1,274 nt of DNA from Escherichia coli (GTDB lineage Bacteria > Pseudomonadota > Gammaproteobacteria > Enterobacterales > Enterobacteriaceae): the NCBI RefSeq assembly GCF_003334355.1, contig NZ_QOWP01000091.1; one strand, 5' to 3'. Below the pieces are notes generated by a model, which was not told where the DNA came from, ran no database searches, and saw only the letters and a program-made list of their open reading frames with translations. Shown piece after piece: positions 1,172 through 1,274 of this stretch. Every line of letters starts with the position of its first letter. Positions within the stretch are counted from its first letter, which is position 1. Made by a program: the position numbers and the translations under genes.

Positions 1172-1274
1172 CTCGTTGTGGAGAATAACAAAAATGGTCA
1201 TCTGGAGCTTACAGGTGGCCATTCGTGGGACAGTATCCCTGACAGCCTACAAAACGCAATTGAAGAACGCGAGG

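Follow-up and report, generated by a model that had tools for sequence, protein, structure and literature searches.

The stretch of DNA that we analysed (the window) comprises 1,274 nt of the Escherichia coli contig NZ_QOWP01000091.1 (assembly GCF_003334355.1). It is 100% identical over all 1,274 nt to copies annotated as 'IS4-like element IS421 family transposase', an annotation carried by the window matches in 2,814 E. coli records; such matches are present in 2,220 of the 5,426 complete E. coli genomes (~40%). The element is IS186, and its terminal inverted repeats are perfect over 23 bp; such terminal repeats and a short target duplication are characteristic of the IS4 family. In the window's own record, a 10-bp target duplication (GGATCTCTCC) flanks the element on both sides, and target duplications were also found at ten other IS186 copies that we inspected. 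Taking the 23-bp repeats as its ends, the element with seven Cs in the run described below (C7) is 1,339 bp long, from window position 4 to the equivalent of 1342, and the form with six Cs (C6) is 1,338 bp long, with an ambiguity of up to 3 nt at the ends because the duplicated target continues the repeat. IS186 is mobile in laboratory E. coli, where new lon::IS186 and trmA::IS186 insertions have been described (PMC11251521). The features that we located are listed in Table 1.

Table 1. Features of IS186 located in and next to the window (position 1 is the first nucleotide of the window)
Feature	Position	Strand	Basis or remark
Left terminal inverted repeat of IS186, 23 bp, CATAAGCGCTAACTTAAGGGTTG	4..26	.	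Window 1-26 recurs in inverted orientation at the other end of the element
0-frame transposase ORF, 370 aa, annotated as InsL / IS421-family transposase	59..1171	+	ORF call and profiles; TAA stop at 1169-1171
TAA closing the +1 frame upstream	1113..1115	+	Sequence
Stem-loop H1, AAUCCAGC-CAUC-GCUGGAUU	1114..1133	+	Core of 6 bp, 1116-1121 with 1126-1131; loop 1122-1125; directly 5' of the pyrimidine run
Possible second pairing H2, ATTTC (1131-1135) with GAAGT (1143-1147), C-run in the loop	1131..1147	+	Sequence
Pyrimidine run T3C7, candidate slippery tract	1132..1141	+	C6 puts the tail in frame; all natural in-frame copies are C6
In-phase CCC then AGA, candidate +1 ribosomal shift site	1139..1144	+	In relatives, CCC_UGA, UGG, UGU or UCU
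Coding frame of the tail, at +1 to the transposase ORF, covering residues 362-405 of the 424-aa fusion, EVPDPKRRTNSLWRITKMVIWSLQVAIRGTVSLTAYKTQLKNAR...	1143..1274	+	Continues to TAG at 1332-1334
S-L-W-R codons, most conserved tail motif	1173..1184	+	Aligned across 32 unshifted relatives; S372 nearly invariant
ATG for an internal Met (fusion residue 379) within the first tail helix	1194..1196	+	Leu or variable in relatives
Right 23-bp inverted repeat	~1320-1342 equivalent, beyond the window		Partner of the left repeat

The 370-aa protein holds an N-terminal domain and a complete DDE/YREK catalytic domain. It matches PF01609 (DDE_Tnp_1) with an E-value of 1.6e-26 and NF033592 with 133 bits against a cut-off of 115, the latter profile ending at about residue 350. 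The Y-(2)-R-(3)-E-(6)-K signature is found at Y305, R308, E312 and K319, which are invariant in our alignment (A3) of the family, and it is on this catalytic signature that the membership of IS186 in the IS4 family rests.

An earlier note on this DNA had drawn attention to a GGAG at 1180-1183, 10 nt from an ATG downstream of the transposase stop codon, and to a frame (MVIWSLQVAIRGTVSLTAYKTQLKNAR) that opens at this ATG and has no stop codon up to 1274. We found all of these elements at those positions, and our translation agrees. Beyond 1274, the frame runs for 19 more codons in the window's own record and ends with a TAG at the equivalent of 1332-1334, within the 23-bp right inverted repeat and ~8 nt from the end of the element; as the frame ends there, the proposed read-through or fusion into flanking host DNA does not occur. 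On the upstream side, the frame is closed by a TAA, therefore the change of frame must fall between 1116 and 1171. From 1116 onwards it is open, overlapping the last 56 nt of the transposase ORF and crossing the C7 run at 1135-1141. When the two frames are joined with one C fewer (C6), they give a continuous ORF of 424 aa, which ends in the right inverted repeat and aligns end to end with relatives in which the tail is unshifted. The junction peptide of the predicted 424-aa product reads ...SLDFPPEVPDPK, also written ...PSLDFPPEVPDPK.

The tail as the C-terminus of the transposase

A word-indexed protein search returned a single protein related to the tail, and an exhaustive HMMER search was needed to recover its relatives. 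On its own, the tail aligns collinearly with the C-terminal ~55 residues of over 30 unshifted relatives, with E-values down to 1.6e-7, and an HMM built only from 32 unshifted relatives, with IS186 left out, matches the +1 frame of IS186 with an E-value of 5.2e-11. The motifs SLWR and PR[KR]R..Q are common to the tail and the unshifted relatives, and P412, R413 and R415 of the tail are three of the 22 invariant columns of the family, alongside the DDE/YREK residues. An NCBIfam scan of the tail matched no family, and a sub-threshold Pfam match to E2F_TDP (E-value 0.0078, 16.4 bits against a cut-off of 25.7) was taken as chance. We computed dN/dS against two ~78%-identical relatives (L005 and L096), the only ones at a useful distance. 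The value for the tail frame is 0.22 (21 synonymous and 24 non-synonymous changes; Fisher p 9e-5), compared with 1.4-1.9 in the other two frames, and since both comparators are decayed copies with internal stops, it reflects past, not necessarily present, selection. In the HRLNE.PRRRILQMV block, seven synonymous changes were counted against one non-synonymous change. Judging from these sequence comparisons, the frame after the stop codon encodes the last ~63 residues of the IS186 transposase, a conserved C-terminal domain with the pattern SLWR...PRRR. Its reading frame is offset by one base, so the 370 aa annotated in E. coli probably represent a 424-aa enzyme cut short.

The earlier note was thus right that real coding was possible in this frame, which homology and purifying selection support, and right in its choice of deciding checks (the end point of the frame and its conservation with a synonymous bias), but not in assigning it to a separate short ORF. 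Such an ORF, of 46 codons from the ATG at 1194 and with the GGAG as its ribosome-binding site, is extremely improbable, as is the other reading offered, a chance open frame in a non-coding tail. The GGAG-N10-ATG spacing would be acceptable for initiation, and the Met is kept in the two ~78%-identical relatives; however, this frame already carries the conserved KRR.NSLWR, with synonymous changes at Arg, ahead of the ATG, conservation of the Met does not extend to the family as a whole, and the SD-like GGAG is simply the TGG-AGA junction of the Trp and Arg codons of SLWR. Moreover, in about a third of the shifted relatives the tail frame contains no start codon (ATG, GTG or TTG) ahead of SLW, and one accompanied by an SD-like sequence was found in only five of the shifted relatives. 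A chance frame, for its part, is excluded by the HMM homology of the tail and by its dN/dS.

The fold predicted for the joined product is that of a known IS4-family enzyme. The AlphaFold model of the 424-aa product has a pLDDT of 89.4 and a pTM of 0.88, with two predicted tail helices at 373-389 and 394-408 (pLDDT ~85-94). Aligned to the Tn5 transposase, it gives Z-scores of 19.3-19.6 and rmsd values of 5.0-6.1 Å over 320-333 residues (VIA-align against 1MUH_A: Z 19.3, rmsd 6.1 Å, 333 residues), with residues 4-402 of the model corresponding to 5-471 of Tn5, and Foldseek matches the two with an E-value of 2.4e-10. According to the account in PMC6182136 (citing its ref. 43), the C-terminal helix of Tn5 is required for synapsis, and the substitution G462D in it abolishes activity. 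When modelled as a homodimer, the 424-aa product scored 0.46 against 0.01 for the best control; this score is the model's own confidence, and as the Tn5 dimer has already been solved, and the model may know it from its training, the pass may stem from resemblance to the Tn5 structure. Of 30 proteins solved as pairs, 20 attained the mark used, as did one of 23 solved as single chains; the homodimer runs took an alignment of our own making as input, with a contact agreement of at least 56% and a partner pLDDT of at least 78. The predicted dimer interface is made almost wholly of tail residues 375-404, plus 352-356, 10-14 and 58-66. On the strength of the structural comparison with the Tn5 transposase, the tail is probably the C-terminal dimerisation/synapsis domain.

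Frame arrangement and junction signals among relatives

The tail lies in the +1 frame in 64 of 75 loci, or 50 of the 59 non-redundant ones, from many phyla, a proportion that is biased upward because an alignment of junction-ending proteins served to collect the loci; the unbiased HMMER list contains 82 junction-ending proteins versus 32 in-frame ones. The direction of the shift is strongly conserved, with 50 non-redundant loci at +1 versus four at +2 (p 4e-11). In a tree whose terminal branches measure ~0.7 substitutions per site, the arrangement is clade-wide, requiring seven label changes versus 29.8 with shuffled labels, and the shifted form is present in multiple copies within several genomes. 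One comparison isolates the difference: L017 (C6, shifted) and L015/L016 (C5, two copies, in frame) differ by one C and give the same product, DSPPLDAA. The absence of a frameshift is regarded as a hallmark of the IS4 family, and the position of the C-terminal domain in IS186 and in these 50 relatives, read from the sequences, contradicts this hallmark but not the membership of IS186 in the family. Since the C-terminal domain is in the +1 frame, it is probably joined to the catalytic body only through programmed recoding, both in IS186 and in a large, old clade of the IS4 family.

The overlap of the two frames, which is 56 nt long in IS186 and as short as 29 nt in relatives, always contains a CCC site. 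The tail lies behind a conserved cassette: first comes a stem-loop, whose end lies 9 nt upstream, next ~10 nt of pyrimidines that close with an in-phase CCC, and finally a T, or, in IS186 alone, an A. The stem-loop of IS186 (H1) has an MFE of -10.8 kcal/mol (z -5.07), and none of 200 shuffled sequences was as stable; a search of the window against Rfam at E <= 1 found no family. Among 48 non-redundant relatives, 38 have a hairpin of at least 5 bp ending 9 ± 1 nt before the CCC, compared with a mean of 9 (sd 5.1) at control offsets. These hairpins comprise 18 distinct stem sequences with compensatory changes; in their alignment, 91% of the cells are paired, and covariation is 0.244 versus 0.082 after shuffling (0 of 500 shuffles). 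The hairpin is weak in the CCC_TGG class, where only six of 15 have at least 5 bp. The anciently in-frame relatives, used as a control, have stems of 4-7 bp, which are expected by chance in a wide positional window. A pairing like H2, of at least 5 bp, was found in 27 of the 48 relatives against a control mean of 9.

The 10-nt tract is all-pyrimidine from -6 to +3 in the shifted relatives, often as a mixture of T and C, and is absent from the eight anciently in-frame relatives, whose longest runs are 3-6 nt versus a median of 11. An in-phase CCC followed by T (A in IS186) occurs in 48 of 52 non-redundant shifted loci. At these 48 loci the next codon is TGA in 20, TGG in 15, TGT in six, TCT in four, TCA in two and AGA in one; thus the base after the C-run is T in 47 and never G, though the hosts are mostly GC-rich.

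Candidate routes to the full-length product

We tentatively favour, at a little less than an even chance, the reading that the tail is the C-terminus of the transposase, joined to it via hairpin-stimulated transcriptional slippage with the loss of one C. The hairpin of 6-8 bp at 1114-1133 would form in the nascent RNA right behind the U3C7 hybrid, and RNA polymerase would then realign forward, leaving a fraction of mRNAs with C6. Ordinary translation of the C6 mRNA would yield the 424-aa full-length transposase ending in the right inverted repeat. The unslipped mRNA would yield the 370-aa protein with the DNA-binding and catalytic domains but without the dimerisation helices, which is therefore probably inactive alone and possibly inhibitory. 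Our analysis shows the homology, the selection, the arrangement of the frames, the conservation of the cassette and the predicted fold, whereas the occurrence of slippage, its rate and these roles of the two products are what we infer. The tract is mixed T/C in most relatives (e.g. TCTTCCCCC), so that realignment of RNA and DNA would be costlier there than at T5C5. The conserved T after the run would suit a ribosomal slip from CCC to CCU and has no obvious role in slippage by the polymerase.

A close rival, possible though in our view rather unlikely, is a +1 ribosomal frameshift, in which the peptidyl-tRNA(Pro) on the in-phase CCC would slip to CCU (CCA in IS186) with a stop or slow codon in the A site, namely UGA, UGG, UGU or UCU in relatives and the rare AGA in IS186; the upstream hairpin may contribute as it refolds at the mRNA exit. 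In E. coli few codons are rarer than AGA, hungry codons favour +1 slips (as at CUU_AGG in Ty1), and re-pairing on the CCA of IS186 would need a cmo5UGG tRNA(Pro). The near-invariant T after the CCC in mostly GC-rich hosts, the UGA directly after it in 20 of the 48 loci, the 50-to-4 conservation of the shift direction, and a post-slip +1 codon that is usually a common one starting with G all fit this mechanism. However, the identities UGA, UGG and UGU follow largely from the T and the +1-frame codon next to it (GAG, GGG, GTG), thus only the T counts as independent evidence, and IS186 itself lacks this T, having CCC_A. The 10-nt pure pyrimidine tract, with codons that vary among Phe, Ser and Pro, and the hairpin abutting it at the distance of the RNA:DNA hybrid better suit polymerase slippage, and no SD-like stimulator was seen by inspection at a prfB-like spacing. 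In the literature, a proneness to +1 shifts at CCC_UGA is established for bacteria and phages (pheL, 15%; tsh of a Listeria phage; PMC5009743), and Antonov et al. took a conserved shift direction as a signature of ribosomal over transcriptional recoding (PMC3711429); on the other side, according to a 2016 review, no IS element had been identified that uses +1 ribosomal frameshifting (PMC5009743).

Copies of IS186 with C6 exist in the databases. The exact 424-aa C6 product is found on 130 contigs, and at least one C6 copy is present in 146 of 2,719 E. coli records carrying IS186. Ten C6 copies that we inspected are otherwise intact and lie at different sites with target duplications. Rhizobium has both C5 in-frame copies, two in number, and C6 shifted relatives. 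These observations fit a switch at the DNA level only, in which the full-length enzyme would come from rare copies mutated from C7 to C6, much as in phase variation and with no event at the RNA or the ribosome, the C7 copies being silent reservoirs or makers of the 370-aa protein alone. We consider this very improbable. The canonical dnaJ-adjacent IS186 copy of a re-sequenced MG1655 is C6 despite the standard K-12 annotation of IS186, which we take to give the 370-aa form, and in several assemblies every inspected IS186 copy is C6; undercalling of homopolymers in long reads would also produce either of these two patterns. A DNA switch moreover leaves unexplained the conserved hairpin, the conserved T, and the fact that 85% of diverged lineages share one off state while both of their frames stay intact and under selection.

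It could also be that the tail of IS186 is a relic that is no longer expressed, the 370-aa protein being a complete transposase and the frame being open only since the lineage is young. IS186 is the only one of 48 lineages with an A after the run, and its 0 frame runs for nine extra codons; the NCBIfam IS4 profile is satisfied by the 370-aa protein, and every annotation takes 370 aa as normal. Against this, the dN/dS of the tail since the divergence from the ~78%-identical relatives points to selection, at least in the past, three of the 22 invariant residues lie in the tail, IS186 has kept both the hairpin and T3C7 intact and in an unusually clean form, and the predicted dimer interface is made of the tail, whose equivalent helix in Tn5 is essential. 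A relic is, in our judgement, improbable.

Implications and comparison with known recoding systems

IS186 is a frequent cause of spontaneous mutations (e.g. lon::IS186), and annotations everywhere give its transposase 370 aa and treat the in-frame variant as a pseudogene. Should the recoded 424-aa product be the active enzyme, thousands of gene annotations would be incomplete, in E. coli as well as in many Proteobacteria, Acidobacteriota and Chloroflexota, and the IS4 family would lose a textbook hallmark. The cassette would be a compact and widely conserved signal that either extends hairpin-driven slippage to a second IS family or represents the first +1 ribosomal frameshift in an IS; both mechanisms are directly testable in E. 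coli K-12. It is doubtful, though conceivable, that a large, ancient clade of the IS4 family, IS186 of E. coli K-12 included, makes its full-length transposase by a +1 ribosomal frameshift stimulated by a 5' hairpin at CCC_U (CCC_A in IS186). If so, +1 ribosomal frameshifting would be known from insertion sequences for the first time, and these elements would provide a natural, productively used site of the CCC_UGA type in enterobacteria, with recoding gating the dimerisation rather than the catalytic domain. Our literature searches on frameshifting in IS186 and on CCC_UGA in transposases returned nothing relevant, and we found no prior description in them. The +1 clusters of DDE_Tnp_1 in Antonov et al. 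(2013) are A-rich, and IS4 and IS186 are named in neither the text nor the supplements of that study (PMC3711429).

The closest parallel for slippage is the Roseiflexus IS630 element, for which stem-loop-dependent slippage at T5C5, with transcripts lacking one C, is described by Penno et al. (2015), as summarised in PMC5009743. As far as that summary goes, both elements have a GC-rich 6-bp stem with a 4-nt loop directly 5' of a 10-nt run of Ts followed by Cs, the core in IS186 being the same and the run T3C7; in both, the +1 arrangement is fixed in the DNA and the loss of one C brings the downstream part of the transposase into frame. On the same summary, the two differ in family (IS630/Tc1-mariner versus IS4) and in that slippage is proven in IS630, whereas for IS186 it is the reading that we favour. 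The shift in the Roseiflexus element, as summarised there, joins the DNA-binding part to the catalytic domain, while in IS186 a catalytic domain that is already complete would gain no more than the final ~63 residues. Most relatives of IS186 have mixed T/C tracts and a conserved T after the run, unlike the T5C5 of the Roseiflexus element as given in that summary.

The +1 sites of prfB, pheL, tsh of the Listeria phage and antizyme (CCC_UGA/CUU_UGA) and of Ty1 (CUU_AGG) resemble the IS186 family in the in-phase CCC followed by U, in the stop or rare A-site codon of many relatives, in the conserved direction and in a 0-frame product that is a truncated protein. They differ in that the IS186 cassette has a 5' hairpin and a long pyrimidine tract, is by inspection without a prfB-spaced SD, and in IS186 itself has CCC_AGA. 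As in the OrfA-OrfAB systems of IS1, IS3 and IS5 (IS427), recoding in IS186 would set the ratio of short to full-length product, the signal lies within the element, and low efficiency would limit transposition. However, those systems use -1 events on A-rich heptamers, and their short product is a DNA-binding regulator without a catalytic domain, whereas the short product of IS186 keeps the whole catalytic domain and lacks only the C-terminal helices. A short product with DNA-binding and catalytic domains but without the dimerisation helices would represent a new regulatory logic compared with the IS1/IS3 scheme. Finally, Tn5 (IS50), itself of the IS4 family, is predicted to share its overall fold with the IS186 product (Z ~19), the modelled tail helices superposing on the C-terminal region of Tn5 up to residue ~471, a region containing the dimer-interface helix that carries G462. 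Like Tn5 with its transposase and Inh, IS186 would make two isoforms from one gene; in Tn5, however, the second isoform arises by alternative initiation in an unbroken frame and is truncated at the N-terminus, whereas the short isoform of IS186 is truncated at the C-terminus by the arrangement of the frames.

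The IS186 copy and the frame at its 3' end

The window represents one copy of the IS4-family insertion sequence IS186/IS421. In a database search, the full 1,274 nt were 100% identical to copies carrying the annotation 'IS4-like element IS421 family transposase', with matches in 2,220 of the 5,426 complete E. coli genomes. The record containing the copy is 15.5 kb long, with a 10-bp duplication on both flanks of the element. The sole mismatch between the window and the genome record G000 over 1,274 nt is a T at position 911 where G000 has a G (transposase residue 285, Val -> Leu).

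Features of the IS186 copy in window coordinates
Feature	Position	Description
IS186 element	4 to ~1342	bounded by 23-bp terminal repeats
Annotated transposase ORF	59-1171	370 aa
IS186 hairpin	1114-1133	-10.8 kcal/mol, z -5.07
Second possible hairpin	1131-1147	C-run in loop

Several observations concern the surroundings of IS186 copies. A Hok/Gef-family toxin gene (L001 1255-1407, plus strand; PF01848, E-value 2.4e-22) adjoins the right end of the copy, hok-like genes also abut copies in loci L085 and L092, and the K-12 copy is located between dnaJ and mokC/hokC. All ten insertion sites inspected (L084-L093) have symmetric G-rich and C-rich flanks, GGGG-N6-CCCC-like, with duplications of ~10 bp; such flanks are consistent with the target consensus published for IS186 (SaiSree et al. 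2001, as cited in PMC11251521). Mobility of IS186 itself has been demonstrated (PMC11251521). Locus L004, an 833-bp contig of a Staphylococcus cornubiensis assembly that is 99% identical to IS186 over its entire length, is most likely E. coli contamination, or else a very recent transfer.

An earlier note had proposed a short ORF in the 3' tail, possibly reading into host DNA. The GGAG at 1180-1183, the ATG at 1194-1196 and the 10-nt spacer between them are indeed present, and the frame has no stop through 1274. Followed downstream, the frame terminates at a TAG within the right inverted repeat, 19 codons beyond the window, so host DNA is not reached. Upstream it is open already from 1116, so that it shares sequence with the end of the transposase ORF and runs through the C7 tract at 1135-1141. 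The GGAG, noted as SD-like, forms the Trp-Arg codons of an SLWR motif, and the supposed start is an internal, non-conserved Met. About one third of related elements lack any start codon in the tail frame. An independent ORF is very improbable.

Conservation and predicted structure of the tail

We joined the two frames by an assumed +1 shift at the C-run and searched with the tail of the resulting fusion, which recovered a natural protein (96% identity) that has both frames continuous. An exhaustive HMMER search with this natural protein as the query returned two classes of relatives. For the long ones (420-460 aa, 30-39% identity), the alignment extends to the C-terminal end of the fusion, and the SLWR and PR[KR]R..Q motifs of the IS186 tail recur in them. 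The alignment of the short ones (360-400 aa, 38-48% identity) ends exactly at residue 361, at the junction D-[FS]-[PS]-P, and many of them terminate as ...PP-stop or run on as out-of-frame-looking sequence. The IS186 tail alone matches more than 30 long relatives at their collinear C-termini, an HMM built from long (in-frame) relatives only matches the IS186 +1 frame with an E-value of 5e-11, and the tail residues P412, R413 and R415 are among the 22 invariant alignment columns. A synonymous bias is present as well: in comparisons with two relatives of ~78% identity, the tail frame has a dN/dS of 0.22 versus 1.4-1.9 for the other two frames. These comparisons show the tail to be a conserved and selected part of the IS186 transposase; that it is an unexpressed relic seems quite unlikely.

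The closest diverged relatives of IS186 are L005 (Candidatus Erwinia dacicola) and L096, at ~78% nucleotide identity. Their shift site has the canonical CCC_TGA form or the C7 form, and both are pseudogenised (TGG -> TAG in core and tail of L005; CAG -> TAG in L096).

The 424-aa fusion, which is the exact product of natural copies with one C fewer (C6), was modelled with pLDDT 89.4 and pTM 0.88, with tail helices at 373-389 and 394-408. The model matches Tn5 transposase over its full length (Z 19.3-19.6; residues 4-402 corresponding to Tn5 5-471). The predicted homodimer scored 0.46 versus 0.01 for the best control, passing a mark that was attained for 20 of 30 proteins whose solved structures are pairs and for 1 of 23 whose solved structures are single chains; this pass is a likeness to Tn5, not proof of binding. 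Contact agreement among the runs was at least 56%, partner pLDDT was at least 78, and the predicted interface consists almost entirely of tail residues 375-404. From the model, we infer that the 370-aa product would lack the dimerisation element and be unable to synapse alone.

Frame arrangement and a probable recoding cassette

We retrieved 80 related loci, their source genomes spanning many phyla. Of the 75 loci with a detectable tail, 64 have it in the +1 frame, and the 59 non-redundant loci comprise 50 in the +1 frame, 5 in frame and 4 in the +2 frame, proportions biased towards +1 since the fetching query was an alignment of junction-ending proteins. The HMMER list, free of this bias, holds 82 junction-ending versus 32 in-frame proteins. 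On the catalytic-core tree (terminal branches of ~0.7 substitutions per site), the junction-ending proteins group in large blocks, with IS186 among 47-49 of them, and single genomes can hold multiple copies of shifted elements. The shifted and in-frame versions of a closely related Rhizobium pair differ by one C, and the in-frame version (two copies) reads D-S-P-P-L-D-A-A, the exact +1-shift product of the shifted one. A variant IS186 lineage (L003 and L095, ~97% identical), with TTTTCCCCC replacing TTTCCCCCCC, owes its in-frame state to a substitution together with a one-base difference; the two copies observed are truncated or decayed.

At 48 of 52 non-redundant shifted loci, an in-phase CCC stands at the junction, preceded by pyrimidine-only codons (TCC, CCC, TTC or TTT); a pyrimidine tract of this kind is absent from eight anciently in-frame relatives. 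The base 3' of the CCC is T, or A in IS186 only, and the next 0-frame codon is TGA (20 loci), TGG (15), TGT (6), TCT (4), TCA (2) or AGA (1). A stem-loop of at least 5 bp, with the end of its 3' arm 9+/-1 nt upstream of the CCC, occurs in 38 of the 48, versus a mean of 9 loci (sd 5.1) over 96 control offsets. Eighteen distinct stem sequences occur, and they show compensatory changes such as CCCCG/CGGGG versus CCGGG/CCCGG, which exchange Pro and Gly in the protein. A second possible hairpin, in which the T-rich half of the run pairs with a purine stretch just 3' and the loop contains the C-run, is seen at 27 of the 48 loci and is strongest in the CCC_TGG class, where it would account for the nucleotide conservation of TGGGGATAC (0-frame 'WGY'). 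The frame very probably represents the transposase's C-terminal domain, accessed via a +1 recoding cassette that is conserved.

At least one C6 copy (in frame, 424 aa) is present in 146 of 2,719 IS186-bearing E. coli records, and in a re-sequenced MG1655 (L094 1457-2568) the canonical dnaJ-adjacent copy is C6, labelled by PGAP as a 'frameshifted' pseudogene. Such copies may reflect either true variation in run length or homopolymer errors of long-read sequencing. A C7/C6 switch at the DNA level is an improbable alternative to recoding.

Mechanism and relation to known systems

The data are compatible with two known mechanisms, transcriptional slippage and +1 ribosomal frameshifting. The latter is suggested by the T that follows the run almost invariably, by how often relatives have CCC_UGA and by the conserved direction of the shift, and we regard it as the somewhat less likely of the two. 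Slippage, which we tentatively favour over it for IS186, would take place at the T/C run abutting the hairpin, with one C lost; in IS186, T3C7 lies directly 3' of the hairpin. The tract is purely pyrimidine even though its codons differ (Phe, Ser or Pro), which also points to a constraint from an RNA:DNA hybrid.

Programmed recoding of IS transposases is of an already known kind, and would be new here for the IS4 family. A 2016 recoding review lists frameshift use in the IS1, IS3, IS5 and IS630 families only (PMC5009743), and our literature search, with Sharma et al. 2011 and ISfinder outside its scope, turned up no account of recoding for IS186 or its relatives. The logic would be unusual because recoding adds a dimerisation domain, not a catalytic domain. 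As that review describes it, the proven cassette of the Roseiflexus IS630 element consists of a 6-bp stem with a 4-nt loop and then T5C5, and yields transcripts without one C (PMC5009743). The hairpin adjoining a 10-nt T/C run matches this cassette, which speaks for transcriptional slippage, and IS186 is its cleanest analogue.
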